Shown piece after piece: positions 698 through 41,234 of a stretch of DNA of 46,624 nt. The DNA is taken from the IMG/VR virus record IMGVR_UViG_3300029858_000359; one strand, 5' to 3'. Each line of letters starts with the position of its first letter. Position 1 is the stretch's first letter. The notes below the pieces were generated by a model that saw only the letters and a list, made by a program, of their open reading frames with translations, searched no databases and was not told where the DNA came from. Source of the DNA: a virus. Its lineage: Duplodnaviria > Heunggongvirae > Uroviricota > Caudoviricetes. The position numbers and the translations under genes were made by a program.

Positions 698-1060
698 GGG
701 GCTGATTCTGGATTCGACGGGATTTGCGAAACCCAAGGTGCATGCCGAGGGGCGGTTGGCCTCGTAAAAAGCCGCAAAAAATAGTCGCAAACGACGAAAA
801 CTACGCTTTAGCAGCTTAATAACCTGCTTAGAGCCCTCTCTCCCTAGCCTCCGCTCTTAGGACGGGGATCAAGAGAGGTCAAACCCAAAAGAGATCGCGT
901 GGAAGCCCTGCCTGGGGTTGAAGCGTTAAAACTTAATCAGGCTAGTTTGTTAGTGGCGTGTCCGTCCGCAGCTGGCAAGCGAATGTAAAGACTGACTAAG
1001 CATGTAGTACCGAGGATGTAGGAATTTCGGACGCGGGTTCAACTCCCGCCAGCTCCACCA
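698..1060 (+). ncRNA. ssrA: tmRNA (SsrA), about 363 nt
   Basis: Starts GGGGCTGATTCTGGATTCGACGGG, contains the tag-encoding stretch GCAAACGACGAAAACTACGCTTTAGCAGCTTAA, ends with tRNA-like arm GGGTTCAACTCCCGCCAGCTCCACCA. Confidence 0.95.
1028..1060. repeat. attL: ssrA 3'-end copy of the 33-bp direct repeat (partner at 41202-41234)
   Basis: CGGACGCGGGTTCAACTCCCGCCAGCTCCACCA recurs at 41202-41234 with one mismatch. Confidence 0.85.
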
Positions 1061-1190
1061 ATCATGATTGGACGGTGTAAGGACAACACCAACAAAAACA
1101 GGAAGTTAGCAGTCTCAGCAGGACACCGACCAGACGGTGAGGAGACAAAAAAGGATACGCAAAGGAGCCGCGGCTCTCAAGTGTGAAAGA

Positions 1191-1216
1191 AGCCCGCAAA
1201 TTGCGGGCTTTTTTAT
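1191..1216 (+). terminator. Rho-independent terminator
   Basis: AGCCCGCAAATTGCGGGCT hairpin followed by TTTTTT. Confidence 0.6.
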
Positions 1217-1269
1217 TGATCAGTCAACAATAAACAGTAACCGAATGAGAATTTAATAAGGATATTCAT

Positions 1270-2301
1270 ATGGAAGCTACTGTGGATTCGATTGATTTTC
1301 TGATCCGTAGTGAAGATGATTTTCTAAACTTTCTGGAAGAAATGAAAGCCCGAGAGGGGCTTGATTCTAAAGAGTTTATTTTCCCTAACGTAAAGTTTGC
1401 AGGCTGGCCATCCTTAGACATAAATGTTAAAGGAGAGCGGTATCATTCATCAATTACATCAGCAATGTTGTTTGGTATGTCAATGCTCAACGAGGAGATA
1501 CAGCGGGCGTTTGCAACCATACGATACGGATCGCAGAATCTTCAACGCTTGACTAATGAAGACAAGCAACGACTTGATATAAATTTTAAAATTAGCGAAG
1601 GTTCTAGTGATGCGGAAGGCACCACTGACAAGATCATCAACGCAGTAACTGATTTTTTGCGAGATACTATGTCTGGACTGAACGGCTGGCAGAAAATGCT
1701 TGTTATAATCACAATGGTTGGCGCGGCCAGCACATGTGGTTATCACTACATTTCAGAAAATGCCGTAACAGAAAGACATGCAACTGATCGGCAGGTTGAA
1801 ATTGCGAAAACCACATCCGATGGCATAAACAAAGCCATAGAAGCAACATTAGATTATAAAATCTATGGGAAATCAGCGATTAGCGATAAAGTTACTAGTC
1901 ACGGACAAGCAGGTAAAAGTGCTTTAGTGAAGCAATTAGCTGCTGATCCTACTGTCGAAACCGTGACTTTAGGAAATGAGAAACTAACACGACAAGACCT
2001 AAATACCTACAACAGCCGACAATCTGTAGATAGAGAACGTAAAGAACGAACTGATATATTTTCCATCAAAGGTGTAACCAGAACAGGGCCAACAAATCAG
2101 GATATTAATATTAACGTTGTTAGGGTCTCTAATGACGAATGCTTCACAATCAAAGCTTCAGCTGATGTTATCACCCAAGATGAGTTGACAGCTATTGTTG
2201 ACGCTTTGTCAAACAACTCTCATATTAAAATCAGTTACTTAGAGGTAATTGAAAAGGGTGCTGTTTCTATAGGTCAGTTCAACACTATTGTTTCAGAATA
2301 A
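1270..2301 (+). CDS. Hypothetical protein, 343 aa, one central hydrophobic helix (prophage-end cargo)
   Basis: Long ORF in AT-rich DNA with upstream TAAGGA ribosome-binding site; hydrophobic stretch WQKMLVIITMVGAASTCGYHYI; no family recognised. Confidence 0.6.
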   Translation: MEATVDSIDFLIRSEDDFLNFLEEMKAREGLDSKEFIFPNVKFAGWPSLDINVKGERYHSSITSAMLFGMSMLNEEIQRAFATIRYGSQNLQRLTNEDKQRLDINFKISEGSSDAEGTTDKIINAVTDFLRDTMSGLNGWQKMLVIITMVGAASTCGYHYISENAVTERHATDRQVEIAKTTSDGINKAIEATLDYKIYGKSAISDKVTSHGQAGKSALVKQLAADPTVETVTLGNEKLTRQDLNTYNSRQSVDRERKERTDIFSIKGVTRTGPTNQDININVVRVSNDECFTIKASADVITQDELTAIVDALSNNSHIKISYLEVIEKGAVSIGQFNTIVSE

Positions 2302-2352
2302 TCACTTAACCCCATTTATGTAGGTTGAGGTTATAAGTCACGGAGACCAGAT

Positions 2353-2697
2353 ATGTCCTTAAAGTATGCACATGAAAAATTTCATACTGCAGTACTTACT
2401 CTTGCGGGCCATGGAAGTATTCAAGAACGCTTGATTAATTCGTATGTTTTTAGCCTTGGGCATCTTAAAACAGCCGATGATATTCCAAATGCCTTACAAA
2501 GCAGGTTCGATGAATTATGTAAGGAACTGACTAAGTTTGATGCCACTGGCGATGAGGGGCGAGTTCAAGCAACAGTATCAAAACTTAACGATTTCGAGAT
2601 CAATAAACTGATCGAAGATATTGTCAGTCTTAACGATGATATTTGCATGAAATTGGCTCTGACGGATGAGACTTACCAAGACATACACCAAAGTTAA
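2353..2697 (+). CDS. Hypothetical protein, 114 aa
   Basis: ORF with GGAG ribosome-binding site 8 nt upstream; follows 1270-2301 after a 51-nt gap and ends at a terminator. Confidence 0.55.
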   Translation: MSLKYAHEKFHTAVLTLAGHGSIQERLINSYVFSLGHLKTADDIPNALQSRFDELCKELTKFDATGDEGRVQATVSKLNDFEINKLIEDIVSLNDDICMKLALTDETYQDIHQS

Positions 2698-3192: not shown

Positions 3193-3747
3193 TTATTTAT
3201 CTCCTGCCGGAAACCTCTGATACAAAGTCGATACGCCAACATCATAGATAATCGCAACTTTCTGGCGCGGAACTCCTGATGCAATTAATCGTCCGGCTTG
3301 TGCCCATTGTTCTGGTGTAAGTTTGGGACGACGTCCACCAATTCGTCCCTGTGCGCGAGCAGCTTCCAGTCCAGCTTTTGTTCGTTCAACAATCAGTTCT
3401 CGTTCCATTTCAGCCAGGGCCCCCATCACATGAAAGAAAAAGCGCCCCATTGGGGTACTGGTATCAATTGAATCCGTCAGACTACGAAAGTTGATGCCTC
3501 GTTCGCGCAACTCCTCCACCAGCACGACAAGATGCCGCATACTGCGCCCCAGTCGGTCCAGTTTCCAGACCACCAGCGTATCACCTGCCGATAATGTCCT
3601 GAGCAGTTTTTTCAGTCCCGGCCTTTCGGACTTTGTACCGCTTATCTTGTCTTCAAAAATCAGCTCGCATCCTGCACAGTTCAGCGCATTACGTTGTAGA
3701 TCTGTGTTCTGGTCATTTGTTGACACACGTACATAGCCAATAAGCAT
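3193..3747 (-). CDS. Site-specific DNA invertase, serine recombinase of the Pin/Gin/Hin/Cin family
   Basis: N-terminus MLIGYVRVSTNDQNTDLQ with catalytic serine motif, C-terminal helix-turn-helix; start set at the second ATG, which has a GGGAGA ribosome-binding site; adjacent to the invertible tail-fibre segment. Confidence 0.9.
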   Translation of the reverse strand: MLIGYVRVSTNDQNTDLQRNALNCAGCELIFEDKISGTKSERPGLKKLLRTLSAGDTLVVWKLDRLGRSMRHLVVLVEELRERGINFRSLTDSIDTSTPMGRFFFHVMGALAEMERELIVERTKAGLEAARAQGRIGGRRPKLTPEQWAQAGRLIASGVPRQKVAIIYDVGVSTLYQRFPAGDK

Positions 3748-3773
3748 GGTAGATCTCCCTGACAAAAGCAGGA

Positions 3774-4307
3774 ATGATGCCATTTGCTCGTTATTTCTGC
3801 ATTTTCATAAACCTTGGTTTGGGAGAAGGCTCAGCATTACCCGGTGGTGTGCCTGTTCCGTGGCCTTCAGCCACTCCGCCAACAGGCTGGCTGAAATGCA
3901 ACGGAGCAGCTTTTTCTGCTGAAGAATACCCGGAACTGGCAAAGGCTTATCCGACAAATAAATTACCTGATTTACGCGGTGAGTTTATTCGTGGCTGGGA
4001 TGACGGACGTGGAGTGGATAACGGAAGGGGATTATTAACGCTTCAGGACGGTGCGATTGTCAGTCATAACCACTATTGGGGAATCTGGACTTCACGAACT
4101 AACGACCAGACTCTGGGAAGTTTTACAGGCACCACGATTTTAAAACAAATCACGCCCCTGTCTCCGGCCATTGACTTCGATAATTACCCAATTCCCAACC
4201 CGGCTATTACAGAGGGTGGTGTTGTTGCGGCAACGACTAAACCTGCAGGTGCGAATGAAACACGCCCACGAAATGTCGCTTTTAACTATATTGTGAGGGC
4301 TGCATAA
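3774..4307 (+). CDS. Alternative tail-fibre C-terminal variable segment, currently not joined to the constant N-terminus (functional part begins at the crossover site near 3813)
   Basis: Contains the conserved tail-fibre motif PWPSATPPTGWLKCNGAAFSAEEYPELAKAYP; reading frame passes through the crossover site (encodes NLGLGE). Confidence 0.75.
   Translation: MMPFARYFCIFINLGLGEGSALPGGVPVPWPSATPPTGWLKCNGAAFSAEEYPELAKAYPTNKLPDLRGEFIRGWDDGRGVDNGRGLLTLQDGAIVSHNHYWGIWTSRTNDQTLGSFTGTTILKQITPLSPAIDFDNYPIPNPAITEGGVVAATTKPAGANETRPRNVAFNYIVRAA
3802..3827. repeat. Invertase crossover site, left end of invertible segment
   Basis: TTTTCATAAACCTTGGTTTGGGAGAA; inverted partner at 5660-5685 shares a 19-bp core AAACCTTGGTTTGGGAGAA; resembles gix/hix sites. 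Confidence 0.8.
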
Positions 4308-4909
4308 TGAATAACGCAGAATTAAACAGTGAATTAATTGCCACTATGGCAGGAGAAATTACTGTTTATAACTTTGACGTCATGAGTCGGGAGTATATTT
4401 CAGCTTCAACTGAATATCTTGCTGTTGGTGTCGGCATTCCGGCATATTCCTGTTTAGATGCTCCAGGCACCTACAAAGCTGGTTATGCAATCTGCCGCTC
4501 TGCAGATTTTAACTCATGGGAATATGTACCAGACCATCGCGGTGAAATCGTCTATAACACCGAAACGGGAGACGCCAAAGAAATCACAACTCCGGGTGAT
4601 TACCCCGAAAAAACAACCACTATCGCCCCGTTAACGCCATACGATAAATGGGATGGTGAGAAATGGGTGACGGATACTGAGACACAGCATAGCGCCGCAG
4701 TAGACGCGGCAGAAGCACAACGTCAGTCACTGATTGATACTGCAATGGCTTCCATTAGTCTGATTCAACTGAAATTGCAGGCCGGGCGGAAGCTGATGCA
4801 GGCAGAGACCACCCGACTTAACACTGTGCTGGATTACATTGACGCGGTGACGGCAACAGATACCAGTACCGCGCCGGATGTCATCTGGCCTGAACTGCCG
4901 GAGGAGTAG
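4307..4909 (+). CDS. Tail fibre assembly protein (partner of the alternative fibre segment)
   Basis: 200-aa ORF directly after the fibre segment; C-terminus LDYIDAVTATDTSTAPDVIWPELPE typical of Tfa proteins. Confidence 0.8.
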   Translation: MNNAELNSELIATMAGEITVYNFDVMSREYISASTEYLAVGVGIPAYSCLDAPGTYKAGYAICRSADFNSWEYVPDHRGEIVYNTETGDAKEITTPGDYPEKTTTIAPLTPYDKWDGEKWVTDTETQHSAAVDAAEAQRQSLIDTAMASISLIQLKLQAGRKLMQAETTRLNTVLDYIDAVTATDTSTAPDVIWPELPEE

Positions 4910-5312
4910 GCCATTCAATATCTGGCGCACTGGAAGTATCGACCAGTTCCAGTGCGTCCAGATAATCCAGCCACAAATTATATTGCGCCAGTTCCTCACC
5001 TTTCAGACGACCAATCGCCGCTTTACCAGGCCATTGTTTACTGTTCATGTATTCGTTGGCCTGATTAACTAATCGCTGTTTATTTGATTCAGCGATTGAG
5101 ATTAATTCTTCGCTGGTAAGTGGTGGCGCATCCTGCCATGCTGGAAAACCATTTTTATCTGAACCAAGTATTTTACCATCAGGCCATGCAACTCCTGCGA
5201 ACTCAGAATAAATAGTAAAGTTTATTTTCGTAGCGTTCTCAGGAATGGTTTGGCTATCTGGTGAAATATAAAATCCCGAATCAGAGGGATTAAAATAATA
5301 TGTCTTTTCCAT
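4881..5312 (-). CDS. Tail fibre assembly protein (partner of the currently expressed fibre)
   Basis: 143-aa ORF; C-terminus LWLDYLDALELVDTSSAPDIEWPTPP, Tfa-like. Confidence 0.8.
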   Translation of the reverse strand: MEKTYYFNPSDSGFYISPDSQTIPENATKINFTIYSEFAGVAWPDGKILGSDKNGFPAWQDAPPLTSEELISIAESNKQRLVNQANEYMNSKQWPGKAAIGRLKGEELAQYNLWLDYLDALELVDTSSAPDIEWPTPPAVQAR

Positions 5313-5314
5313 AG

Positions 5315-5962
5315 TTAATACCCCACAGCCATCCAGTAAATTGAATTTGTTGTAGCAGAAGTGTAAGTAAATCTGATTTTAGTTCTGTTGGTACTTCCAA
5401 TATCAAAGCCCACAGAACGGGCAGAAGGATCATTAGTTGAAATAAGAGCGTTTACCGAACGACAAGCAGCAGGGAAAGCTACAGGTAATGTTATATCAAC
5501 TGTTCCAACACTTCCTCCGGTTGGTGAGACAGAAAAACTCCCCCATTGAATAATCATCCCCCCAGGTAATTTCTGGTATCCATTGGCGGTCAATGAGTTA
5601 CCAAAGCTGTTCATATCCGGTACCTGATTTTCTCCTGTCCCCACATTCCTCTTTGCCGCTTCTCCCAAACCAAGGTTTTCGAGAGCTGTTTTCACCGTGC
5701 CATCCGATTTGATATCGCCAAACGGATTCTTGCGGCTTAACAGCAGCGCACGAAGCGCGGTAAGCAGCTGGTCATGCCGCCCCTTCTCCAGGCTGGCACC
5801 GGATGCCTCCACAACGCTGCAAAGCTCCTCCTGCAACATGTCAAAGTAGTCATCATCCAGATCGGTGGCAGGCGTGCCGGTCTGGGGGTTACCACGGGTA
5901 AAACCGTTCTTACCCGCGCCGAACTTATCCTTCTGCGCGGTTTTCGTGTCTATACGATGCAT
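5315..5962 (-). CDS. Tail fibre protein: constant N-terminus (about 5686-5962) fused to the currently oriented variable C-terminus
   Basis: 215-aa ORF crossing the right crossover site, which encodes ALENLGLGE. Confidence 0.75.
5660..5685. repeat. Invertase crossover site, right end of invertible segment
   Basis: TTCTCCCAAACCAAGGTTTTCGAGAG, inverted repeat of the site at 3802-3827. Confidence 0.8.
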
Positions 5963-5965
5963 GGA

Positions 5966-6550
5966 TTACTCCGGATATTTAAAAATCACATAGGTATGCG
6001 ACGGGCAGAGTTTGTTAAGAACACACTCGACAACGGTGTCCCCCCAGAAGCGCAGCGCGGAATCACAGGGATCGCCACATGTCATCCAGGTGGTGTTGGT
6101 GGCGGCTGGCATGTTGACCTGCCAGTAATACCGCCATTCAGGCGCATTCACCGCGTCAGTACAGGCCGATGAGCAGGTGAACGTGCTTTTGTCGTATCGC
6201 GTGATGTTGGCATCCGGTCTGCCCAGGGCAGCAAGCTGTGCAAGATAAAAATTCTCGTTGATGCCGCCCGCCAGGTTAACCTTCGCATCCAGCCGTTGCT
6301 GACGCTGGCGAAGGGTCTGTGTCCCTGTAGGAATACATTCATCCGGCAGGCCGCACAGACGCTCCCAGCGATTTATCAGTTCGGTGGTGGTGCGCGGATC
6401 CAGCTCCCGCATCAGGGCATCCGCACGCTGATGAACGCGGGTTAATGACGGTGCCGCACCGGCAATCGCCGGATCGCTGGCTGACCACGCCGGACCGGGC
6501 GGCAACAGTGCTGACAACAGACGGATGTAATCATCGTTTGTCACGTCCAT
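5966..6550 (-). CDS. Phage tail protein, DUF2313 / Mu gp48-like
   Basis: 194-aa ORF between baseplate J and tail fibre; sequence reminiscent of YmfQ/gp48 family. Confidence 0.6.
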
Positions 6551-7599
6551 GAAATCGCCCCCAGAACCGCCAGTTCATTTTTCGCAATGGTGATATTGTC
6601 CGCCGGTGCAAGCAACTGATGGCTGTATTCCCCGTTCGCACCGGAAATCGCTTCACTGATACGTGACACCTTCAGTTCTCCCTGCGGATAACCATCACGC
6701 AGCAGGAACGAACGCAACTCCGCGGTGATGGCAGCCCGTATTTCCGGTGTGTCCGGCGTCACACGGATATGAAAATCCACCGTATGTGCCACCGGCCTGA
6801 ACACATACAAATCAGAGCCTGCCACCGGGGCCAGTGGCCCGATATGTTGTCTTGCCGCCGTTTCCGTTGATTCTTCCGGAATGGGATTAATCAGGTCACT
6901 GCTGGCAATCATCACACCGACAGTCCCCGTTCCCATCCAGTGTCGGTATGTCCATGCGCGGGTAATGCCAGGCACTTCTTTAGCCCAGACGACATAGTCC
7001 CCGTCAGCCCCGCCCTGCGGCGTCCAGTAATACCGCTCAATGACGCGGGCGCGCCACGTTTCCAGCTCTTCAGTATCAAATCCGCCTGTCAGGGTGTCAG
7101 CCACACCGGAAGACGGCAGACCATTCACCGGCGTGACCAGGATTAATGCCGTACCGTCGTCAGCGTTACCGACCGCACCTGCACTTGAGCAGGCGATCGG
7201 CACGCGCAGGACACCACCGGAGCTGATTGCATCGTCAGTTGTCGTGTACTGCACCAGGTCATCGCGCTGAATAACACTCCCGGCAGTCACCTTCAGGCCA
7301 TCGCTGACACCTTCCCAGCGCATATACCCGCTGGCAACCGTGGCTCCCTTGCGCGGGCACCGTTTCATCGCAGCATGTCGCCCCAGCCAGGACTCATCGC
7401 ACAGGTCAGGCAGCATGTTCATTGCCAGATAATCGATGTATCCGTAAACCGTATGCAGCGCCGCCGCATACACCTTTGCCCGCACGTCTTCATCCATGCG
7501 CCGGAGCGTGTCGCTGACGTCCAGCCTGGCGAATAAATCGTTACGGAGCATACTGATATTTTCTGCCAGCGTCGGGCGCTGAAATTCACTGTCCGCCAT
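6541..7599 (-). CDS. Baseplate J-like protein (Mu gp47-like)
   Basis: 352-aa ORF in conserved baseplate gene order. Confidence 0.7.
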
Positions 7600-8014
7600 G
7601 CGTTATCGCACTCCACAGATCATCAAAAGAAATCATTACCGGTCCGTCACGACGCCAGAGGGTGATACTGTTACCCAGTTCATTAATCCCGGGGCGGCGG
7701 ATATCCAGATCAATACGGGACACCACGCCGTCATCAATCATCCATTGCAGGCATTCGCGGATATACCCCCTTACCGTCTGCACCAGCTGATTGGTCAGTT
7801 TGCAGCGCTGAAGCAGCCACAGTCGGGAGCCGTAACGGTCATTCTGTACCGCAGGCCAGGTATCCCCCCACCATCCCATCGGGACGTCGGCGTTGTCATC
7901 AGGCTCCGCCCGCCGCCAGGTAAACAGGGAAATCACCACGGCGCGGGTCAGCGGATCCAGCGGTGCGCTGGCACAGGTGCGTTTACCGTTCACCGTCAGC
8001 CACAGTTCCATCAT
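7586..8014 (-). CDS. Baseplate protein, Mu gp46-like
   Basis: 142-aa ORF, position and size. Confidence 0.55.
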   Translation of the reverse strand: MMELWLTVNGKRTCASAPLDPLTRAVVISLFTWRRAEPDDNADVPMGWWGDTWPAVQNDRYGSRLWLLQRCKLTNQLVQTVRGYIRECLQWMIDDGVVSRIDLDIRRPGINELGNSITLWRRDGPVMISFDDLWSAITHGGQ

Positions 8015-8559
8015 GCCTCCATCGCTTTATCAGGTTTGTCGGTGTTACTGCCCTGACCGTTCTCTCTGTGACGATGCCCGTTATAGGCAAGCCGCATCGC
8101 TGACATGGTGGTGCCGCCGGAGTCGCACAGGTCTTTCACCTGTCCTGTCACTTCCAGGTCCATTTCAAAACGTGCTTCAGGTGCATTGCGAAACGTGATC
8201 GTTTTACCTGCACCGTCCACCACGATCCCCTCCCGGGTCAGCGTCACGGACTGCCCCTGATCGTCATAGACAGCCACCTCACCCGTCTGCAGCCCTTTCA
8301 GGCGGTAACGCCGGTCCGACACCGTAACAACCACCGCATGAGAACGGTCACCATCCGGAAACAACACCACCGCTTCCGCACCGCTGTTTGCCCTTGCGGT
8401 AAAACCGTAGGGTTCAAGATGTTCAACCCCGGCTTTGGGTTCACCGGCAATCAGGGACACATCCACGGTCTGACATTTCGTGGCGGCACTGATGCTTTTC
8501 ACCACCGCCCGCCCAATCAGGCCGAGGAGTTGTCGCTGTATGGTTTCAATCGCCTTCAT
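8011..8559 (-). CDS. Baseplate assembly protein V (spike), Mu gp45-like
   Basis: 182-aa ORF; position in module. Confidence 0.6.
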   Translation of the reverse strand: MKAIETIQRQLLGLIGRAVVKSISAATKCQTVDVSLIAGEPKAGVEHLEPYGFTARANSGAEAVVLFPDGDRSHAVVVTVSDRRYRLKGLQTGEVAVYDDQGQSVTLTREGIVVDGAGKTITFRNAPEARFEMDLEVTGQVKDLCDSGGTTMSAMRLAYNGHRHRENGQGSNTDKPDKAMEA

Positions 8560-9638
8560 CAGAACGGGTCCTCCTGTACTCTGGCTTTTTTCTTTTTCCG
8601 CGCGCCGGGGGCTTCGGGTTCAGGCAGATAAGCATCAGGTGGGCCGACACGGATTTCCGTCAGGGTGCCATTCTGGTCCTGAGTAAACGTGACTTCCGAG
8701 ACAAGCAGTTCGGTATTGTCGAAACCACAGACCGGATCGAAGACAATCACCCGCTGGTTGGGCTGCCACAGCGTACCGTTACCCTGTCGCCAGCCCTGCA
8801 CCACATAGGTGGTTTCATCCGTCCGCGCCGCCCGTTGTCGGGCTTCAAAGTCAGCACGCGCAATACAGCCTGCCCCCGTAGCCTGCCCTGTCTGCCTGAT
8901 ATACATCGGACGATAACGGGCAATAAATGCATCCTCTGTGCGGGCCCGCAGCGCGGTGGTGGTGGCCTCACCGAAATCATCGTCGTTTCCGGCACGCTGC
9001 CCCGCCACCTGGTAAACTGAAAACCGCTCCCGGATACTCTTCTCCGTATCACAGGAAAGGATGTTTTCCCCAAGTACCAGCGCGGTATGTGCCCGCGTTG
9101 AGCCAATACCACCAATCACCAGCCTGCCGTGCGGGTCGTCATAAGCCAGCGCCTGCTGCTGACCGAGTATTTTGTTGATCACCTCGATCACCGTTTCACC
9201 GTGATCAGGCTGGACATCCGGAATAACACCCGACGGCGCATTGCTGTTCACCACCTCAATGCCGAAAGGCGCAGCAAGCGCCTGCGCAATCTGTACCAGC
9301 GATCGTCCGTTAAACTGTGTCGGTTCGGCTGCACAGTCAATCAGGTCAGCAGTCAGACTACGTCCGGCAATACCGGTGCTGACCGAACGGGCATCGTAAC
9401 GAACGGGGGTCGCCTCCACCCAGCCGGTGATCACCAGCTCATCACCAATCAGCACTTCCACTTTTGAACCATTTTTAATGCGCGGCTGAAGCGTGGTGAT
9501 ACCCTCATCACCCGGCCACTGGCGGGTGATCTCCACGCTGAAATCCCGCGCCAGCCGTTCAATACCGGCACCGATGCGCACCGATGTCCAGCCATTCCAC
9601 TCCCGGCCATTTACCCGTAGCGTGACATTGTCGTTCAT
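8559..9638 (-). CDS. Tail or baseplate hub protein, Mu P (gp44)-like
   Basis: 359-aa ORF following the DNA circulation protein gene. Confidence 0.55.
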   Translation of the reverse strand: MNDNVTLRVNGREWNGWTSVRIGAGIERLARDFSVEITRQWPGDEGITTLQPRIKNGSKVEVLIGDELVITGWVEATPVRYDARSVSTGIAGRSLTADLIDCAAEPTQFNGRSLVQIAQALAAPFGIEVVNSNAPSGVIPDVQPDHGETVIEVINKILGQQQALAYDDPHGRLVIGGIGSTRAHTALVLGENILSCDTEKSIRERFSVYQVAGQRAGNDDDFGEATTTALRARTEDAFIARYRPMYIRQTGQATGAGCIARADFEARQRAARTDETTYVVQGWRQGNGTLWQPNQRVIVFDPVCGFDNTELLVSEVTFTQDQNGTLTEIRVGPPDAYLPEPEAPGARKKKKARVQEDPF

Positions 9639-10963: not shown

Positions 10964-10980
10964 ATATACTCCGAAAATTA

Positions 10981-11008
10981 AAAAGCCACCTATTAGAAGG
11001 TGGCCTTG
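10981..11008 (-). terminator. Rho-independent terminator of the tail-embedded moron
   Basis: On the minus strand GCCACC-TTCTAATA-GGTGGC hairpin followed by TTTTTAATTTT. Confidence 0.6.
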
Positions 11009-31494: not shown

Positions 31495-32432
31495 CCCCTG
31501 AATCCTGCCGGGATCTGGCTGTAGTCCACATTGTCGTAACTGGCTTTGAAGTACGGGTCTTCGCGTTTTTCTGTGTACGTGCTGACGGACGGCGATAAGC
31601 GCAGGGAAAGCTCATCCCATTTTTCCCGCAGCTTCGACGGGCTGAGCACGTTACGGCACCAGAACGGATCGCGGCTGACGCGGCTGTACATCTCGCAGAT
31701 TTGTTTGTGAGTACGACCATCCTGCACACACATCAGGCGAATTTCGTTTGCCCAGGCTGTCCAGTTAGGTTCTTTGGGACGAACCACCTCGCCGTCACAT
31801 TCGGCGGCCTGCTCGTACAGGGCGATGATTTTTTTCCAAAGCCACTGTGCGCAGGTCAAATCATCCTGCGTCCCCCACTGGCGCTTTTTAGGGCTGAATA
31901 CAACCGCATCAGGATGGAGAGTTAAAAAATCCTGTCCATCCGTCTGCGTGTCCGGTTGCGAAGCGTCCGGACGAGAAGGTTTTTTATCTGACGGATCATG
32001 TTTTGATTTTACTGACGGATCCCCGCCAGATTCTGACGGGTGAAAACCCGCTTTTTTGCCAGATTTCGACGCATCAAATTTTGACGGGTCAGATTTTGAT
32101 GCGTCAGATTTTGACGGGTCAGAATCTGACAGTTGAGAAAATGCCGCTGCCTGAAGCTTCGCAACGTTAAGCTGATAAACATTCGACGCATTACGGTTAC
32201 CCTGGCGACGCGCCTTACGCGTTAACCAGCCTTCTGCTTCCAGCCGTGCGATAGCCGTTCTGACGGTACTCATCCCCGCGCCAATCTGGCGGGCAATGGT
32301 TTCAATTGATGGCCAGCACACACCTTCGTCATTACTGAAATCAGCCAGGCGGGCCATAATTGCCACGCTGGATAACTTCATGCCTGACGCAGCGCAACCA
32401 TCCCATACATAGCCGGTTAATTTAGTGCTCAT
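31491..32432 (-). CDS. Replication initiator, lambda O-like, with internal origin iterons
   Basis: N-terminal helix-turn-helix region; coding sequence contains about 8 tandem 15-bp repeats encoding a repetitive SDPSKSDASKSD linker. Confidence 0.7.
   Translation of the reverse strand: MSTKLTGYVWDGCAASGMKLSSVAIMARLADFSNDEGVCWPSIETIARQIGAGMSTVRTAIARLEAEGWLTRKARRQGNRNASNVYQLNVAKLQAAAFSQLSDSDPSKSDASKSDPSKFDASKSGKKAGFHPSESGGDPSVKSKHDPSDKKPSRPDASQPDTQTDGQDFLTLHPDAVVFSPKKRQWGTQDDLTCAQWLWKKIIALYEQAAECDGEVVRPKEPNWTAWANEIRLMCVQDGRTHKQICEMYSRVSRDPFWCRNVLSPSKLREKWDELSLRLSPSVSTYTEKREDPYFKASYDNVDYSQIPAGFRG
31985..32140. repeat. Origin-like iterons (about 15-bp tandem repeats, consensus near AGATTTTGACGGGTC)
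   Basis: TCTGACGGATC, AGATTCTGACGGGTG, AGATTTCGACGCATC, AAATTTTGACGGGTC, AGATTTTGATGCGTC, AGATTTTGACGGGTC, AGAATCTGACAGTTG in tandem. Confidence 0.7.
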
Positions 32433-32441
32433 GACCGACCT

Positions 32442-32780
32442 CTATTTCCCTGAATTTACGACGAAACTGTTCGAGCGGACTGAAGCATTCATGCTCATAG
32501 CCTTCGCGGAGATAGATAACCCGTTGTGTTTCCGGTTCCCAACGAATGACTCTGACGGGCACTCCGTAGTGATCTTTGAACCAGCGGTTAACTTGTCGCA
32601 AAGGACTGTCTCCTTCTGCCGGTTGAAATCACCCACAGCCCACTCTGCAAAGCTGTGGGTTACAATTTCCCTGTCACCTGGTACATTTACTGCATAGCAA
32701 TACTCCACCTTCGCTTTTCCACCCGGTACAGGAAGCGCAATCAGTTGCGAGCGACGGTAGTGTGTTGTTAAACTGTTCAT
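32442..32780 (-). CDS. Hypothetical protein, 112 aa
   Basis: ATGA start-stop overlap with the upstream gene; fills the gap before the initiator gene. Confidence 0.4.
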
Positions 32781-33340
32781 GCGTTAGTTTCTCCACAGTC
32801 ACGACACGCCACGGCGCCCGGAGCTGCACACTCGCGGGCGTCATTACTTTCTGAAATGCAAAAGATTTTGTAGACCAGTGCTGCATGCTCCTGCAGCTTC
32901 GAAATTGAGAGATACAGCTCGTCGTTAATTGCTGTCTTCTCATGCGGTTCCACTACACCGTCTTCGATTGCTGAACGAATCTGTTTTGAATAACTGCCGA
33001 TCTGTTCAATGACTTCCAGCAGACGCTGGTTAATATCGGCGTTGTCCACATCCTCGACGTCAGGAAGAGACACAAATACGCCATTTGCAGACTGCGCCAC
33101 AGCATCAGCAATGAAGTGAGTGCCACCAGCACGCTGTAAAACCATTGCCCATCCCAGCGGAAAAATCTGATCGCCATCTGCACGAAGGCGGTTGAATAAA
33201 GCGTTCTCTGTTACATCCAGCCAGTCAGCCGCTTCAGCGTAACCACCCGGCAACGCCGCGATAGTTTTTCTGACAGCTTTCACGTACCACTCAGGCTGTT
33301 TTTCTATTTTCCAGTGATGCTTACCCACGATTAGCCTCAT
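32777..33340 (-). CDS. Putative CII-like regulatory protein
   Basis: 187-aa ORF immediately downstream of the cro-like gene; family assignment by position and vague recall only. Confidence 0.35.
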
Positions 33341-33371
33341 CGTTCTGTGGTTAAAAATTGAAAGTGTTCTG

Positions 33372-33572
33372 CTAATCTTTCGGATAGATATCCGGTCTTA
33401 AGTCAGATTTCGTAATTGCACCTGACGTGCATTGTTCAAGTTTTTTAGCCAGCACAAAACTGGCTTTTTTATAGCCATTGAAAACCAGCCGTAAGTAGCC
33501 AGGTGTTGAGCCAACTTTTCCGGCCAACTCGTCCTGCTGTTCTTTGGTTAAAGAGTCCCAATACGCTTTCAT
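33372..33572 (-). CDS. Cro-like repressor (helix-turn-helix), 66 aa
   Basis: MKAYWDSLTKEQQDELAGKVGSTPGYLRLVFNGYKKASFVLAKKLEQCTSG; divergent from cI across the operator region; GGAGG ribosome-binding site. Confidence 0.7.
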   Translation of the reverse strand: MKAYWDSLTKEQQDELAGKVGSTPGYLRLVFNGYKKASFVLAKKLEQCTSGAITKSDLRPDIYPKD

Positions 33573-33575
33573 ACA

Positions 33576-33647
33576 ATATGTACCTCCGGTGTACATATTA
33601 CATGATTGAAATGAACCTTCAAGATACTTGTACCTTAACGGTACAAG
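33576..33647. promoter_or_regulatory. Right operator and promoter region between cro and cI, two palindromic operators
   Basis: ATATGTAC-CTCCGGT-GTACATAT at 33576-33598 and CTTGTACC-TTAAC-GGTACAAG at 33627-33647, sharing a TGTAC/GTACA core. Confidence 0.55.
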
Positions 33648-33662
33648 GGTTTTAATTTCGTT

Positions 33663-34337
33663 ATGAAAACAATCCATGACATCCGGCGGTCTAACGCCAG
33701 AAAACTGAGAGATGGTGTTGGCGGGAATTCTTCCTTTGCCACTATGATTGATCGCGAGCCAACCCAGACCAGCAGGTTTATGGGAGATGGTGCTACTAAA
33801 AATATCGGTGACAGCATGGCACGACACATCGAAAAATGTTTCGACCTGCCTGTCGGATGGCTCGATCAAGAACACCAGACAACGAACATCACAAAAAAAC
33901 CTGATGTTTCAATCACTAATAAACAAATCACATTAGTCCCTGTCATATCATGGGTACAGGCCGGAGCATGGAAAGAAGTTGGATATTCTGAGGTTGATTT
34001 GAGCACAGCAGAAACGTATCCCTGCCCTGTACCCTGTGGGGAAATGACTTATATCTTGCGGGTGATAGGTGATTCAATGATTGATGATTACCGCCCGGGA
34101 GACATGATTTTTGTCGATCCTGAAGTACCTGCCTGCCACGGTGACGACGTTATTGCATTGATGCACGATACAGGTGAAACCACCTTCAAAAGGTTGATAG
34201 AAGATGGGACACAGCGTTATCTCAAAGCGTTAAACCCAAACTGGCCTGAGCCTTACATTAAGATCAACGGTAATTGCTCTATAATTGGTACAGTGATTTT
34301 CTCAGGAAAACCAAGAAGATACAAAATCAAAGCCTAA
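33663..34337 (+). CDS. CI-type prophage repressor with LexA-like S24 autopeptidase domain
   Basis: C-terminal domain with GDSM catalytic-serine motif and downstream Lys; N-terminal helix-turn-helix-like region. Confidence 0.85.
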   Translation: MKTIHDIRRSNARKLRDGVGGNSSFATMIDREPTQTSRFMGDGATKNIGDSMARHIEKCFDLPVGWLDQEHQTTNITKKPDVSITNKQITLVPVISWVQAGAWKEVGYSEVDLSTAETYPCPVPCGEMTYILRVIGDSMIDDYRPGDMIFVDPEVPACHGDDVIALMHDTGETTFKRLIEDGTQRYLKALNPNWPEPYIKINGNCSIIGTVIFSGKPRRYKIKA

Positions 34338-37012: not shown

Positions 37013-37231
37013 GTGGAGAAACATATGCTGAACCTCGATTGTGTTCCTATCTCAACTTATTGCAAAGAAACTGGCGAAACTCCTGAAGCAATAAACAAAC
37101 GTGTACAGCGCGGTGTTTGGCGTGAAGGTGTTCAGGTTTTAAAGGTTGAAGGCGTTAAGGAGAGGTGGATTGATCTTAGTGAGGTTGCAAAATGGGCCAG
37201 ACAAAACTGCTCAAACTACCGCGCGGCGTAA
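37013..37231 (+). CDS. Excisionase (Xis-like)
   Basis: 72-aa basic protein with GGAG ribosome-binding site, overlapping the start of the integrase gene. Confidence 0.65.
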   Translation: MEKHMLNLDCVPISTYCKETGETPEAINKRVQRGVWREGVQVLKVEGVKERWIDLSEVAKWARQNCSNYRAA

Positions 37232-38358
37232 CAATCAGGAAACACCGCCAGGGCGAAACGATCAATATAACTTTCACCTACAAAGGCGTTAAATGTCGTG
37301 AGCCTCTTTCCAATCTGGAAGTAACACCAAAGAACATTAAATACGCCGAGCGCACACTCGGCGAAATTCATAATAAGATCGAAAGGGGAACATTCATTTA
37401 TGCGGAATATTTTCCCCGTTCTGCTCGTTTGAAAATTTTTGGTAATGCTGCTGCAGGCAAAACGGTAAAAATGTACCTGGACGAATACCTTGAAATCTGC
37501 GAAACGAGAAAACTTTCACCATCTACGATTGGTGGTTATAAAAAATGCCGTAGTGCGTTAGCCTCACTCCACATTTGCCCTGCAAGTGAATTAACACCAG
37601 CAATCCTGAAAGCGTGGATTCAAAGCCAGAAAACGACCTTAAAAACAATTCGCAACCAGTTATCTTTCCTGCGGTCAGCACTTGATGAAGCCGTAACCGA
37701 TGGGGTACTTCAAATTAACCCCGTATCGTTGGTAACTGCTTCGCGCTACCAAAGTGATAAGTCAGAAGCAGAAAGCAGCTATGTGGTTGATCCGCTATCA
37801 CCAGCAGAAGTTGATGCATTACTAGCAGCAGCCGGAAACAAACAATGGGAAAATCTGTTCCGGTTCGCCATACATACAGGCCTGCGTAGTTCTGAATTAT
37901 GTGCCCTACGATGGCATGATATCGACTTTGTTGGAAAAACAGCCCATGTTCAGAGCGCAAGTGTTGTCGGAGTTATCAAAGGAACAAAGACAAAAGCCGG
38001 TACCCGTAAAGTTGAACTGACTGAAGAAGCAATGTTGGCGTTGATAAACCAGAAGCCATTTACATTCATGAAGGATGCTACTGTCTTTGAAGATCCAAAG
38101 ACCAATAAACCCTGGGCAAGTGCTGATGCAATTAGGAAAAAAGCATGGGTGCCAACATTGCGAAAAGCAGGTATTCGTTACAGAAACCCATATCAAACCA
38201 GGCATACATTCGCCACCAGACATATCAGCCGGGGAGCAAACCTGTTTTGGCTTGCAGCTCAAATGGGGCATAAAGGGCCTGAGATGCTTTTCAGGCACTA
38301 TGGCTCATATCTGAAGGAATATGATGGACAAACAAGCTTGAAGAAGATAACAATATAA
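37192..38358 (+). CDS. Tyrosine integrase of the prophage
   Basis: 388 aa; C-terminal catalytic region RHTFATRHISRGANLFWLAAQMGHKGPEMLFRHYGSY. Confidence 0.9.
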   Translation: MGQTKLLKLPRGVTIRKHRQGETINITFTYKGVKCREPLSNLEVTPKNIKYAERTLGEIHNKIERGTFIYAEYFPRSARLKIFGNAAAGKTVKMYLDEYLEICETRKLSPSTIGGYKKCRSALASLHICPASELTPAILKAWIQSQKTTLKTIRNQLSFLRSALDEAVTDGVLQINPVSLVTASRYQSDKSEAESSYVVDPLSPAEVDALLAAAGNKQWENLFRFAIHTGLRSSELCALRWHDIDFVGKTAHVQSASVVGVIKGTKTKAGTRKVELTEEAMLALINQKPFTFMKDATVFEDPKTNKPWASADAIRKKAWVPTLRKAGIRYRNPYQTRHTFATRHISRGANLFWLAAQMGHKGPEMLFRHYGSYLKEYDGQTSLKKITI

Positions 38359-38375
38359 TCCAAGCATGAAACTAT

Positions 38376-38400
38376 TGGCCACAATTTGTGGCCATTTTAC
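38376..38400 (+). terminator. Perfect 19-bp palindrome followed by T-run between int and the OLD-like gene (terminator or operator)
   Basis: TGGCCACAATTTGTGGCCA followed by TTTTAC. Confidence 0.45.
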
Positions 38401-38416
38401 GGAGCAAGATAGAAAC

Positions 38417-40150
38417 ATGGCAAATCAAATTACCAAACTAAAAAATATAAATGTTGTGAAGTTTCGCGGACTGAAAAATATAAACATCGAGTTTGGTTCT
38501 CGCCTAACTGTTATTTGTGGTAAAAATGGCACATCTAAATCCACAATTCTTGGCATTATCGCCCAAATATTTAGCTTTACAAAGGACTTTACCAAAAACC
38601 CTGAGACTGATTTAACACAATATAAAACATTAACAAATGGCAGCTTCAAGTCAGCTTTCAGCGAACATTTTAGGCTTTCAGAACAATTTGATGTTCCTGG
38701 TTCAATGGACGTCAAAATTAGTGTCTATGATGGTGCATCGAACAAACATCTTGAAAAACTAACATTAGGTTTATACAGCTACAGTGACAGAGATAAATCA
38801 AGGCCTGTAGTCAGGGGAAATGATTCAATACCGGAAAAAAACCAAAGTAGAAACGTTACTCATCCTGTTATTTTTTTAAGCTTAGCACGACTTCTTCCTA
38901 TTACATTAAGGACTGATTACTCAACACGGGATGTTCAGTACATCAATGAAAATTCTGATGAAATCAGAATGATGAGTAACCAACTCTTACTAAAAAACAA
39001 TGGAAGCTCAGTAACAGCAACAAAAGGTACTATCGATTCAATGGTTGTCCATGGTGACAATTATGATCACCAATCAGTATCTGTTGGTGAAGATAATGTT
39101 GGACAATTAATCCAAGCAATTTTTTCATTTAAAAGATTGAAGGAAACTTATTCTGATTATCATGGCGGAATATTGTTAATTGATGAAGCCGATGCAGGTC
39201 TTTTCCCTGCTGCACAGTTAGAGCTAATTAATATTCTAACTAAAGCAGCAAAACAATACGATCTGCAAATAATCATGACCTCGCACTCTCCATTAATAAT
39301 AGAGGATATCTATAATCGTTCAAAACAAGATAGTGATAGCTTTAAAACAATATATCTTACAGACACATATGGAGATATTAAAACAAAGAATAATCTTTCA
39401 TGGACAGATATCCACGCTGATTTACATGTTGAAACTGTAAAAATTAATGATGACATTTGTCTTCCAAAGGCAAATGTATATTTTGAAGACAAAGAAGGTT
39501 TCGACTTTTTCAAACAATTGATAACAGATCGAAAAATAAATAAAATATTAAATCCATTAGGGAATATAAATATTAGCTGCTCTGCCATGCTTGACTTAAT
39601 GGCAAGAAAAATACCAGAATTTACAGCTAAAAGCTTGATCGTCTTAGACGGTGATGTTGTTCACGACAATAGTGCTAATGCAAAAAAAGCCAAAAAAGAA
39701 AAAAACTTATGTTTGCTTCCAAGCACCTTACCTCCAGACCAAATGATTTTTGAGTTTTTATATAATTTACCACCTGATGATGCATATTGGGAAAATAAAA
39801 ATAAATTTACAAAAGCTGTTTTTATGAAAACAGCTAAAGACATAATTGCAACGCTAAAGATTGGTAACGCTCCGATTGATTTAAAAATCCTTATAGATAA
39901 TTATAAAAAAGTTAACAAAAACCATGGCGGGATAGTTAGAAAACTGTTTAAAGATTTTGCACATACGACTCAATTTCAGGCCCAAGTAAAAGGGCGAGTT
40001 AAAGATAACCCATATCGATATTGGGTCGAGAAAAATCCTGTGCAATCGGATAGCTTCAAGAATGAACTAATAAAGAGTCTTAAAGTTATTATGACAAGTG
40101 GACATGGTGTCGATTCTGCTACCATCTCATCATATCTGTCAGATAACTAA
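38417..40150 (+). CDS. OLD-family nuclease-like protein: N-terminal ABC/AAA-type ATPase plus C-terminal TOPRIM-like domain
   Basis: Walker A GKNGTSKST, Walker B ILLIDEADAG, TSHSP signature, C-terminal FEDKEG and LIVLDGDVVHD (Glu and DxD TOPRIM-like); start at MANQITK (ORF track start 38366 lacks a ribosome-binding site). Confidence 0.7.
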   Translation: MANQITKLKNINVVKFRGLKNINIEFGSRLTVICGKNGTSKSTILGIIAQIFSFTKDFTKNPETDLTQYKTLTNGSFKSAFSEHFRLSEQFDVPGSMDVKISVYDGASNKHLEKLTLGLYSYSDRDKSRPVVRGNDSIPEKNQSRNVTHPVIFLSLARLLPITLRTDYSTRDVQYINENSDEIRMMSNQLLLKNNGSSVTATKGTIDSMVVHGDNYDHQSVSVGEDNVGQLIQAIFSFKRLKETYSDYHGGILLIDEADAGLFPAAQLELINILTKAAKQYDLQIIMTSHSPLIIEDIYNRSKQDSDSFKTIYLTDTYGDIKTKNNLSWTDIHADLHVETVKINDDICLPKANVYFEDKEGFDFFKQLITDRKINKILNPLGNINISCSAMLDLMARKIPEFTAKSLIVLDGDVVHDNSANAKKAKKEKNLCLLPSTLPPDQMIFEFLYNLPPDDAYWENKNKFTKAVFMKTAKDIIATLKIGNAPIDLKILIDNYKKVNKNHGGIVRKLFKDFAHTTQFQAQVKGRVKDNPYRYWVEKNPVQSDSFKNELIKSLKVIMTSGHGVDSATISSYLSDN

Positions 40151-40157
40151 TTGATTA

Positions 40158-40196
40158 AAAAGGGCTTTATGTGATGGCCACAAAGCCCTTTTTTTG
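40158..40196 (+). terminator. Rho-independent terminator after the OLD-like gene
   Basis: AAAGGGCTTT-loop-AAAGCCCTTT followed by TTTTTT. Confidence 0.65.
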
Positions 40197-40229
40197 ATAT
40201 ACTTTAGATCTGACATTTAGAGGTATCAT

Positions 40230-41129
40230 ATGCGTTTTAACACCCCACTTCGCTATCCTGGCGGTAAAGGCAAGCTTGCAAATTTCATGCTTCGGCTTAT
40301 TGAAGAAAATAATCTTTCGCCTATACATTATGCCGAACCATATGCTGGGGGTGCTGGTTTAGCATTGAAACTGTTACATCTAAATGCAGCTGAAAAAATC
40401 ATCCTTAATGATATTAATATTTCTGTTTATGCTTTTTGGCACAGTGTATTAAATCATGCAGATCAATTATGTTCTTTAATTGAAAGAACTGAAGTTACAA
40501 TGGATGAATGGTTTAGGCAGAAAGATATAATTAATAATCCTAAAGACCATGATCTTTTAACAATTGGTTTCTCAACCTTTTTTCTCAATAGAACAAATCG
40601 TTCTGGAATATTAAAAGGTGGAGTAATTGGCGGTAAAAATCAAGAAGGGAAATGGAAGCTTGACGCTCGCTATAATAAGAGTGATTTGATTTCTCGAATC
40701 CATAAAATATCAGAAAATCGTCACAGAATAGATTTATATAACATGGATGCAATTGATTTCATTAAAAAAATAGTTATTCAATTGCCACAAAACTCATTAA
40801 CATATTTGGATCCACCTTATTACATAAAAGGTAAAGGTTTATATATCAACCATTATAATCATGATGATCATGTTAGGGTTGCAAAAGTCGTACAGAATAA
40901 TATTAAAACACCTTGGATTGTTTCTTACGATAACACTCCTGAGATCCAAGCTATGTATAAGACATCATCATTAGTATATGGAATAAACTACAGTGCTCAA
41001 GATCGGTACAAAGGATCTGAGGTAATGTTCTTCAGTGAACGATTGAAAATCTTTAAAACAGATGATCCAACTAAGGTAAAAGCGCCTGTATTTAAAAGAG
41101 GATGTGTTGACGACCACATCCAGACATAA
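40230..41129 (+). CDS. Dam-family (alpha-class) N6-adenine DNA methyltransferase
   Basis: Motifs RYPGGKGKL, EPYAGGAG (AdoMet binding) and DPPY (catalytic), order as in Dam; AGAGG ribosome-binding site. Confidence 0.8.
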   Translation: MRFNTPLRYPGGKGKLANFMLRLIEENNLSPIHYAEPYAGGAGLALKLLHLNAAEKIILNDINISVYAFWHSVLNHADQLCSLIERTEVTMDEWFRQKDIINNPKDHDLLTIGFSTFFLNRTNRSGILKGGVIGGKNQEGKWKLDARYNKSDLISRIHKISENRHRIDLYNMDAIDFIKKIVIQLPQNSLTYLDPPYYIKGKGLYINHYNHDDHVRVAKVVQNNIKTPWIVSYDNTPEIQAMYKTSSLVYGINYSAQDRYKGSEVMFFSERLKIFKTDDPTKVKAPVFKRGCVDDHIQT

Positions 41130-41201
41130 AAGGAGCCGCAAAAGATCCGCAGAATAAAATGGTTAGTATTAATCGTTTTATTTCAGCTAATTATAAAAAT
41201 A

Positions 41202-41234
41202 CGGACTCGGGTTCAACTCCCGCCAGCTCCACCA
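41202..41234. repeat. attR of the prophage and attL of the following P4-type island: copy of the ssrA 3' end
   Basis: CGGACTCGGGTTCAACTCCCGCCAGCTCCACCA, 32 of 33 identical to 1028-1060. Confidence 0.85.

Follow-up and report, generated by a model that had tools for sequence, protein, structure and literature searches.

The DNA that follows ssrA in the window (the whole stretch of 46,624 nt that was analyzed) raises the question of whether one composite element or a tandem array of two elements occupies the tmRNA gene and, if there are two, which of them came first. A first-pass annotation had proposed two elements sharing a central att repeat. A full-length tmRNA gene of Escherichia coli, the intact target that Islander looks for, lies at one end of the array (698–1060; ARAGORN and Rfam agree). 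As had been noticed, its final 33 nt (1028–1060) recur at 41202–41234 with a single mismatch (G1033 versus T41207; 32 out of 33 nt). The exact block is 27 nt long (1034–1060 and 41208–41234) and spans the tmRNA T-stem, T-loop and the 3' strand of the acceptor through CCA. A 26-mer from the repeat has two exact copies in the window and was recovered in 0 out of 100 shuffles; none is expected by chance.

Each array member carries its own integrase gene, as Islander looks for in tandem arrays. Pfam identified a tyrosine integrase (37192–38358) within the 40.1-kb prophage that lies between the repeats (~40 kb had been estimated), and a P4-type integrase (41400–42629; PF13356, PF22022, and PF00589) directly 3' of the second copy of the ssrA end. 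The reported spacing of 166 nt between this gene and the end of the second repeat (41234) was reproduced when counted to the annotated ATG at 41400, with a longer ORF starting at 41358. The features of the locus are collected in table 1.

Table 1. Features of the ssrA locus in the window (coordinates in nt).
Feature	Position	Strand	Basis or remark
smpB (SsrA-binding protein), host gene upstream of ssrA	1–483	+	Pfam SmpB, E=1.5e-57
ssrA (tmRNA gene), intact, tag ANDENYALAA	698–1060	+	ARAGORN; Rfam RF00023, 295.8 bits
attL, first 33-nt repeat copy	1028–1060	+	CGGACGCGGGTTCAACTCCCGCCAGCTCCACCA
Phage-borne P' arm, copy of enterobacterial ssrA 3' trailer	1061–1218	+	Contiguous with tmRNA fragment in LLS attP
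Two low-GC cargo ORFs (343 aa, 114 aa), attL to tail-fibre module	1270–2697	+	phrog_6191 (unknown function); GC 0.38–0.43
Pin-type serine invertase	3193–3783	-	Resolvase + HTH_7
Invertible tail-fibre segment with invertase	3193–5678		20-nt perfect inverted repeats at 3809–3828 and 5659–5678
Late operon: tail fibre, Mu-like baseplate, tape measure, tube and sheath, HK97-type head, portal, terminase, HNH	5315–23972	-	ORFs; PGAP annotation of L003
Two opposite-strand low-GC ORFs (117 aa, 208 aa), packaging/lysis interval	24042–25065	+	phrog_14397, phrog_12494 (unknown function); GC 0.38
Lysis cassette: Rz1-like, DUF2570, lysozyme, small upstream ORFs	25087–26860	-	ORFs; homologous part of L003
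Right early operon: Cro-like HTH, CII-like, HTH_36 replication protein, PerC, Dam, LexA-DNA-binding protein, RusA, KilA-N, DUF968, Q antiterminator	27046–33875	-	Pfam
Prophage repressor, S24 peptidase, LexA/CI-like	33663–34337	+	Peptidase_S24, E=2.7e-26; ymfK in relatives
Excisionase	37013–37231	+	phrog_2917 excisionase, E=1.6e-45
Prophage tyrosine integrase, reads towards attR	37192–38358	+	Arm-DNA-bind_2 + SAM_5 + Phage_integrase
Cargo, int to attR: ABC-type (AAA_15/AAA_21) ATPase (38366–40150), Dam-family methyltransferase (40230–41129)	38366–41129	+	Pfam
Phage P arm (left attP arm)	41130–41201	+	Alignable with left attP arm of phage LLS
Prophage attR, second ssrA-end copy; also left island junction	41202–41234	+	T41207 marks phage-derived side
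Island-supplied ssrA trailer; terminator-like hairpin (41284–41298) and T run	41235–41305	+	100% after ssrA in island-only genomes
P4-type integrase, 409 aa from ATG 41400; ORF open from 41358	41400–42629	+	Arm-DNA-bind_3 + Phage_int_M + Phage_integrase
Island cargo, 138-aa ORF	42668–43084	+	
Island cargo, Response_reg_2 (receiver-domain) protein	43156–44922	-	Pfam
Island cargo, HEF_HK-domain ATP-binding protein, cut by window end	45086–46624	-	Pfam

The comparison with genomes that carry only one of the two elements, which had been suggested as a check, was conducted with two constructed queries. Removal of the prophage in silico (760–1060 joined to 41235–41535) gave a sequence that was matched contiguously in 962 out of 5,426 complete Escherichia coli genomes, many at 100%, and the unoccupied junction of ssrA with the left end of the island is therefore present in the population. 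An in-silico attP (40935–41234 joined to 1061–1360) was crossed by the free phage LLS with 88% identity over 221 nt. In LLS the left arm, tmRNA fragment and right arm of attP are contiguous, and a tmRNA pseudogene is annotated at that spot. The phage end and att copy are followed by other DNA, without the island, in strain KCJ3K291, and strain 24AR0142 carries a prophage–prophage array with the phage but without the island. Furthermore, the same island remnant is preceded in other genomes by prophages that share this Int family but are not the same phage and carry other cargo.

Homology breakpoints in other genomes fall at 1025–1033 and 41202–41241, that is, at the edges of the repeat. In other arrays with the same prophage in second position, the matches start at 1025–1033; in island-only genomes the match begins at 41202 or 41203 and runs onward; and in genome H145, which shares the phage end and has different downstream DNA, it is confined to 41140–41241. 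Approximately 1,254 genomes carry the island left junction, which places the number of tandem arrays at ~290 (1,254 – 962), an estimate because the two counts come from different queries. Overall, the island-only junctions, the LLS attP and the breakpoints at the repeat edges support the proposal that the prophage and the P4-type island integrated as separate elements and lie one behind the other at ssrA, with the middle att copy common to both.

The relatives examined for the distal side of the island were strain M10 (attR junction 100%), strain S6aCHROMc (same attR junction) and one island-only genome, which are 99.3–100% identical across the junction. In these closest genomes the island is a stump of ~5 kb (integrase, 138-aa ORF, receiver-domain protein, and HEF_HK ATPase) whose far end has been joined by a deletion to a truncated ygaQ-like gene. 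IS3 lies at this junction in 485 genomes but not in all. The island gene order is the same at loci L001, L002, and L004, and the integrase is annotated as 409 aa in M10 too and is frameshifted in S6aCHROMc. PADLOC returned nothing of note for the receiver-domain and HEF_HK genes.

The window ends inside the island, and the third repeat that the first-pass annotation expected further downstream was searched for in the relatives. Beyond the end of the stump, neither a third ssrA 3' fragment nor an ssrA trailer is present within ~25 kb downstream in the three genomes, and in these relatives the island thus lacks the displaced ssrA fragment of its own that Islander looks for in each array member. 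The K-12 copy after psaA served as positive control and was recovered by the search for the trailer. The 33-nt query missed psaA itself (two 1-nt gaps), which was located only via the trailer, and a very degenerate third repeat could therefore escape this query; the lack of a trailer weighs more heavily against a third repeat. The downstream sequence of the relatives does not support a third repeat beyond the island, and the comparison shows the island as what appears to be an immobile remnant, carried by about one in four complete E. coli genomes.

The analogy with CP4-57 of E. coli K-12 that had been drawn for the site holds at the family level, as both elements have a P4-type integrase immediately 3' of ssrA and bring their own short trailer and terminator. 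It does not extend to the element itself, and CP4-57 was rejected as the identity of the island because the island integrase is only 49% identical to K-12 IntA. No cargo is held in common (alpA, abpAB, rnlAB and others in CP4-57; the receiver-domain protein and HEF_HK ATPase here). CP4-57 also still has, at its distal end, a degenerate ssrA fragment (psaA) with the native trailer behind it, whereas the relatives of the stump lack both.

All modules of the prophage were found (repressor, Cro/CII-like, replication, Q, lysis, packaging, head, tail, Xis, and Int) and it looks like a complete temperate e14/SfV-like myovirus. PGAP gives homologues of this prophage the e14 names ymfK, ymfL, ymfT, ymfQ, ymfR, and pinE. 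The e14 element of K-12 differs in its site, which is icd and not ssrA, and is a defective remnant whereas the prophage here looks complete. Like the prophage here, e14 retains defence cargo (lit) between int and its att. Window positions 1029–25000, including the late operon, are 100.0% identical to a prophage (L003) that lies second in a different ssrA array of an unrelated strain, which indicates recent mobility; pinE and a tail fibre are annotated at the corresponding place in L003. The prophage is a mosaic, with the left 24 kb 100% identical to one strain and the right end 99.3–99.9% identical to others, which shows that these arrays recombine often. This exact mosaic was not found from end to end in any of the complete genomes searched.

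The closest described phages in the Int/attP region, to which the likeness applies, are Escherichia phage LLS (PQ299149; Int 86% identical) and Citrobacter phage phiNP (Int 93% identical), both ssrA-integrating temperate phages with a DUF3596-type integrase. They share the order xis, int, cargo gene(s), tmRNA fragment, trailer, and in LLS the annotated attP lies at the tmRNA pseudogene. Between int and attP, LLS carries a single 271-aa ORF and the prophage here an ATPase with a methyltransferase, and the slot is filled differently in other genomes. The methyltransferase matches PD-Lambda-5_B of PADLOC over its full length (E=5e-124). The best 25 PADLOC matches of the ATPase are PtuA, GajA, AriA and similar proteins, with PD-Lambda-5_A not among these 25. 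The PD-lambda-5 defence system, reportedly described by Vassallo and colleagues in 2022, is said to consist of components A and B. The 343-aa and 114-aa ORFs near attL had no match in Pfam or PADLOC.

The 158 nt after ssrA (1061–1218) copy a trailer that is found after ssrA across the Enterobacteriaceae and lies directly 3' of an intact ssrA in 13 other species. The segment is missing from island-only relatives, indicating that it arrived with the phage. It folds into four covarying hairpins (compensatory changes in 8 out of 33 pairs), of which the fourth forms an intrinsic terminator (GCCCGC..GCGGGC ahead of a T run); this hairpin (~1190–1215) was flagged by RNAalifold and not by a simple terminator scan. 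Rfam holds no family for the trailer and returned only sub-threshold, terminator-driven matches. The 13 species include Escherichia whittamii and Escherichia sp. E1V33, in which, at apparently empty sites, ssrA is followed by the trailer and then by glaH. The K-12 segment after psaA was at first read as a relic of this prophage family from the nearby pinH gene, which shares 68% identity over 57 aa with the invertase in the window. Because the same segment follows ssrA at the apparently empty ssrA-trailer-glaH sites of other Escherichia, a prophage relic was dropped as its sole reading. The genome of FDAARGOS_1287, examined for two trailer copies around one prophage, has a rearranged locus in which int is inverted and a P2-like segment is present. 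Tentatively, the covariation and distribution of the trailer could point to a functional structured RNA (a conserved 3' trailer, 3'-ETS-like, of enterobacterial ssrA) that ssrA-targeting phages have copied into attP so that lysogeny keeps the trailer. In the circular phage it may act as a candidate sib-like terminator or retroregulator downstream of int.

Judged from the sequence comparisons, the array is very probably a live prophage next to a dead island stump, built in three steps. First, an island encoding a P4-type integrase would have entered the ssrA 3' end, bringing its own gene end, trailer, and terminator. A deletion, of which the relatives show the outcome, would then have taken the distal island, the displaced ssrA fragment, the native trailer, and host DNA to the middle of the ygaQ-like gene, leaving a ~5-kb stump that is presumably unable to excise and has IS3 at the junction in many strains. 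Finally, as the observed boundaries and attP suggest, the 40.1-kb e14/SfV-like temperate myovirus would have integrated by Campbell-type recombination within the 27-nt block 1034–1060. Its attP carries an ssrA-end mimic of ~33–39 nt and a trailer/terminator copy of ~158 nt, and ssrA therefore stays intact and terminated after integration. The resulting order is ssrA-attL-prophage-attR-stump, and if Int and Xis of the phage excised the prophage, they would recreate exactly the island-only junction that is found in hundreds of genomes. The order of events is drawn from population frequency and decay state.

The alternative of a single composite element, named by the first-pass annotation, assigns the P4-type integrase and its neighbours to the prophage and treats the second repeat as an internal relic. 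In its favour, only ~165 nt separate the two parts and no third repeat was found in ~25 kb of the relatives. However, the island occurs without the prophage in 962 genomes, the phage occurs without the island in LLS, KCJ3K291, and 24AR0142, and homology breaks off at the repeat. The occurrence of each element without the other already refutes this reading, and its probability is negligible.

With two elements, the order of integration had been given in both directions, and entry of the prophage into an island-occupied site is the most likely. For the reverse order, in which the P4-type island came later into the attR copy of a resident prophage, it can be said that this copy retains the 27-nt core and 32 out of 33 nt and could in principle act as a secondary attB, and that CP4-57 in K-12 is a precedent for a P4-type element adjoining ssrA. 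The G/T mismatch has no power to separate the orders because both yield the same middle junction. Later entry of the island is nevertheless very unlikely: the island-only state is common and has the identical junction, the island is decayed (distal deletion, often IS3, and the frameshifted integrase of S6aCHROMc) whereas the prophage is intact, mosaic, and sporadic, and the same stump is preceded by several kinds of prophage that belong to one Int family and vary in cargo. Import of the whole array by homologous recombination (e.g., generalized transduction), with homology supplied by ssrA/smpB at the left end and by the stump at the right end, is unlikely to a lesser degree, as the mosaic prophage shows that such arrays recombine frequently. 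Import would alter only the place of integration and not the nature of the structure, since the att-bounded architecture still needs an Int-mediated event in some stump-carrying ancestor. Integration of the prophage next to a pre-existing stump thus remains the preferred history.

A prophage next to a P4-type remnant at ssrA is an already well-known and ordinary arrangement. Traffic of elements at the tmRNA gene was reportedly the subject of an article by Williams in 2003, 'Traffic at the tmRNA gene'. Islander lists 125 tandem arrays among 3,919 islands, with the tmRNA gene as the most enriched target. As in the known tmRNA-gene arrays, several integrase elements are stacked at the ssrA 3' end, each restores the end of the gene, and the borders are recognizable by the fragments that were displaced. 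The array differs in that, to judge from the relatives, only the proximal member retains both att sites, the distal member being without the fragment of its own that Islander looks for.

The locus is a routine case of a tmRNA gene collecting mobile elements. It fixes exactly where an apparently intact prophage that targets ssrA begins and ends, which gives correct prophage boundaries for annotation, and it identifies the interval between int and attR as a variable cargo slot in which defence-type genes swap in and out. The stump will be overlooked by island-finding rules that depend on a tDNA fragment at the distal end. Of the items here, only the conserved structured trailer behind ssrA could lead to something new.

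The last 33 nt of ssrA (1028-1060, attL) are repeated at 41202-41234 (attR) with a single mismatch (G1033 versus T41207), and the exact block of 27 nt starts at base 2 of the T-stem and runs through the CCA end. A 26-mer of the repeat is present as two exact copies in the window and in 0 of 100 shuffles. One integrase gene lies between the copies and the P4-type integrase gene follows the second copy (annotated ATG at 41400, 166 nt past 41234), as the first-pass annotation had described. The same annotation placed two elements in tandem at ssrA, a reading that is supported by three independent lines of evidence: an island-only joint, the attP of a free phage, and homology breakpoints that fall on the repeat. 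Removal of 1061-41234 in silico produced a 602-nt ssrA/island-flank joint, which was contiguous in 962 out of 5,426 complete Escherichia coli genomes; many of these match at 100% and have ssrA annotated next to an integrase. The predicted attP, made by joining the right end of the prophage to its left end in silico, is spanned by the free Escherichia phage LLS (221 nt, 88% identity); the LLS Int is 86% identical to the prophage Int, a "tmRNA pseudogene" and attP are annotated at the LLS joint, and LLS has xis, int, one cargo gene, the tmRNA fragment, and the arm in that order. Matches to the same prophage in the second position of other arrays begin at 1025-1033, matches to island-only genomes begin at 41202/41203, and the match to one genome that carries the phage end of the window beside a different neighbor stops at 41241. 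Furthermore, strain 24AR0142 carries a tandem of two prophages of this Int family at ssrA.

Features of the ssrA locus, the prophage and the trailer copies
Feature	Coordinates	Location or remark
smpB	1-483	left end of window
tmRNA gene ssrA, intact	698-1060	
Non-coding arm, 158 nt	1061-1218	terminator at end
Two ORFs, low GC (0.38-0.43), PHROG matches without assigned function	1270-2697	attL end
Pin-type serine invertase and tail-fibre invertible segment	3193-5678	
Mu-like baseplate, sheath, tape-measure module; HK97-type head, portal, terminase module		annotation transferred from L003
ORF, low GC (0.38-0.43), PHROG matches without assigned function	11025-11555	inside tail module
ORFs, low GC (0.38-0.43), PHROG matches without assigned function	24042-25065	between packaging and lysis genes, opposite strand
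Lysis genes		right of head/packaging module
Q antiterminator, DUF968, KilA-N, RusA, Dam, PerC, HTH_36 replication protein, CII-like, Cro-like		right of lysis genes
S24 repressor, then excisionase, then integrase		right part of prophage
Prophage tyrosine integrase	37192-38358	inside repeats
AAA_15/AAA_21 ATPase and Dam-family methyltransferase	38366-41129	between int and second repeat
Trailer copies	window 1061-1218; L005 3565-3720; L006 (K-12) 22687-22845	also L007-L021

The repeats enclose the complete genome of a temperate phage, ~40.1 kb long. Window positions 1029-25000 are 100.0% identical to L003, the locus of an unrelated strain that carries the same prophage in the second position of another ssrA array. 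The invertible segment (1.83 kb, 20-nt perfect inverted repeats at 3809-3828 and 5659-5678) contains alternative tail-fibre C-termini and assembly genes and, together with the Pin invertase, probably forms a host-range switch. The low-GC ORFs look like morons, and PGAP applies the e14 names ymfK, ymfL, ymfT, ymfQ, ymfR, and pinE to homologues of the prophage genes in related genomes. The slot between int and attR has the look of a hotspot for variable cargo or defence genes. Its methyltransferase matches PD-Lambda-5_B (5e-124, PADLOC) and its ATPase is PtuA/GajA/AriA-like (PADLOC), with PD-Lambda-5_A not found among the best 25 PADLOC matches of the ATPase; the two genes may form a variant "compacted RM+Abi" system (Vassallo et al. 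2022). Related prophages carry in this slot a DarT1-associated NADAR antitoxin gene, a ParA-family protein and two hypotheticals, a SecB-like chaperone and two hypotheticals, or four to six hypotheticals, and LLS carries a single 271-aa ORF.

The region downstream of the island was examined in M10 (100% identity across the attR junction), S6aCHROMc, and the island-only genome NZ_CP026085.1. In all three, the island contains only int, a 138-aa ORF, a Response_reg_2 protein, and a HEF_HK-domain ATP-binding protein, followed by IS3, a ygaQ-like alpha-amylase pseudogene without its N-terminus, and glaH-lhgO-gabDTP. The IS3 junction occurs in 485 genomes, and in at least one genome without IS3 the ATPase gene abuts the truncated amylase gene. 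A third repeat had been predicted downstream, but the closest relatives showed neither an ssrA fragment nor the trailer (the 158-nt segment 3' of the ssrA CCA end) in the ~25 kb past the island: a search at word size 7 using the 3'-terminal 33-61 nt of ssrA returned nothing above chance, and the trailer was not found by a search that recovered the K-12 copy as a positive control. The distal end of CP4-57 in K-12 carries a degenerate ssrA fragment (psaA) and then the trailer, and the relatives of the stump carry neither, which argues that the stump's distal att and native trailer were lost through a deletion that accounts for the missing repeat. Having no distal att, the stump cannot excise. 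The island left junction is found in ~1,254 genomes and any trailer copy is missing in ~1,256, two counts compatible with stump and deletion belonging to a single lineage. CP4-57 itself was rejected as the identity of the island, whose Int belongs to the P4 family yet is only 49% identical to IntA. NZ_CP026085.1 (4.83 Mb) is labelled DH5alpha and carries the stump, not CP4-57, at ssrA; the locus does not look K-12-like. The stump cargo at 43156-46624 is a two-gene module of the Response_reg_2 protein (588 aa) and the ATP-binding protein that is kept in ~1,250 E. coli genomes; it gave no convincing PADLOC match, and a role in conflict or defence is speculative.

The stump is frequent, its junction is identical among genomes, and it is decayed (int is frameshifted in S6aCHROMc). 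Prophages located before the stump are intact and mosaic and vary, also in their cargo. The most likely order is that the island would have entered ssrA, then suffered the deletion, and the phage would have integrated last into the regenerated ssrA end. The reverse order, with the prophage arriving before the island, is very improbable; T41207, found in the phage-derived part of the middle copy, does not discriminate, because both orders predict it there.

The trailer is present in the LLS attP, is single-copy in 4,170 of the 5,426 E. coli genomes (mostly 87-91% identity), and lies directly 3' of an intact ssrA in 13 further species of Enterobacteriaceae (83-92% identity among these post-ssrA copies and phage attP). 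Escherichia whittamii and Escherichia sp. E1V33 have glaH-lhgO-gabDTP within ~0.5 kb after the trailer and no island, an arrangement that looks like an empty site; in other species the trailer is followed by phage tail genes. An alignment of 16 copies, a small sample of related sequences (mean identity 90%), folds into four hairpins, the last being the terminator. Compensatory changes affect 8 of 33 pairs (2.8 ± 0.9 in shuffles; 0 of 500 reach 8), and 98% of the cells are paired versus 41-50% with partners slid. Rfam holds no family covering the trailer. On the proposed reading, the phage attP carries a copy of the native ssrA trailer, which would be under constraint at the RNA level; given this sample, the reading is a lead, not a result. 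Alternatively, phage traffic itself might homogenise the trailer across hosts. A functional, structured ssrA 3' trailer or 3'-ETS RNA is a tentative reading, somewhat less probable than an even chance. In K-12, ypjA and the invertase pseudogene pinH follow the psaA-linked trailer (L006 22660-28005); pinH is 68% identical to the window Pin over 57 aa, and the segment may be what remains of an older ssrA prophage from the family of the window prophage.

A 3' end and a terminator for ssrA come with each of the elements, namely CP4-57 in K-12, the stump (a hairpin at 41284-41298, then a T run), and the phage (1061-1218). The effect of CP4-57 excision on ribosome rescue reportedly acts through the altered ssrA end. 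Excision of the window prophage by Int and Xis is predicted to yield the exact island-only junction, and because that junction is recreated exactly, ssrA function should be unaffected, in contrast to K-12, where one report describes a switch of the ribosome-rescue pathway upon CP4-57 excision (PMC10107115).

Tandem arrays form a documented class at both tRNA and tmRNA genes: Islander lists 125 tandems among 3,919 islands, with the tmRNA gene as the most enriched target (PMC4383910). RefSeq genomes already contain arrays near-identical to that of the window. Overall, the finding is real, the core interpretation of the first-pass annotation is right, and the biology is ordinary; only the trailer, if the reading is true, could lead beyond it.
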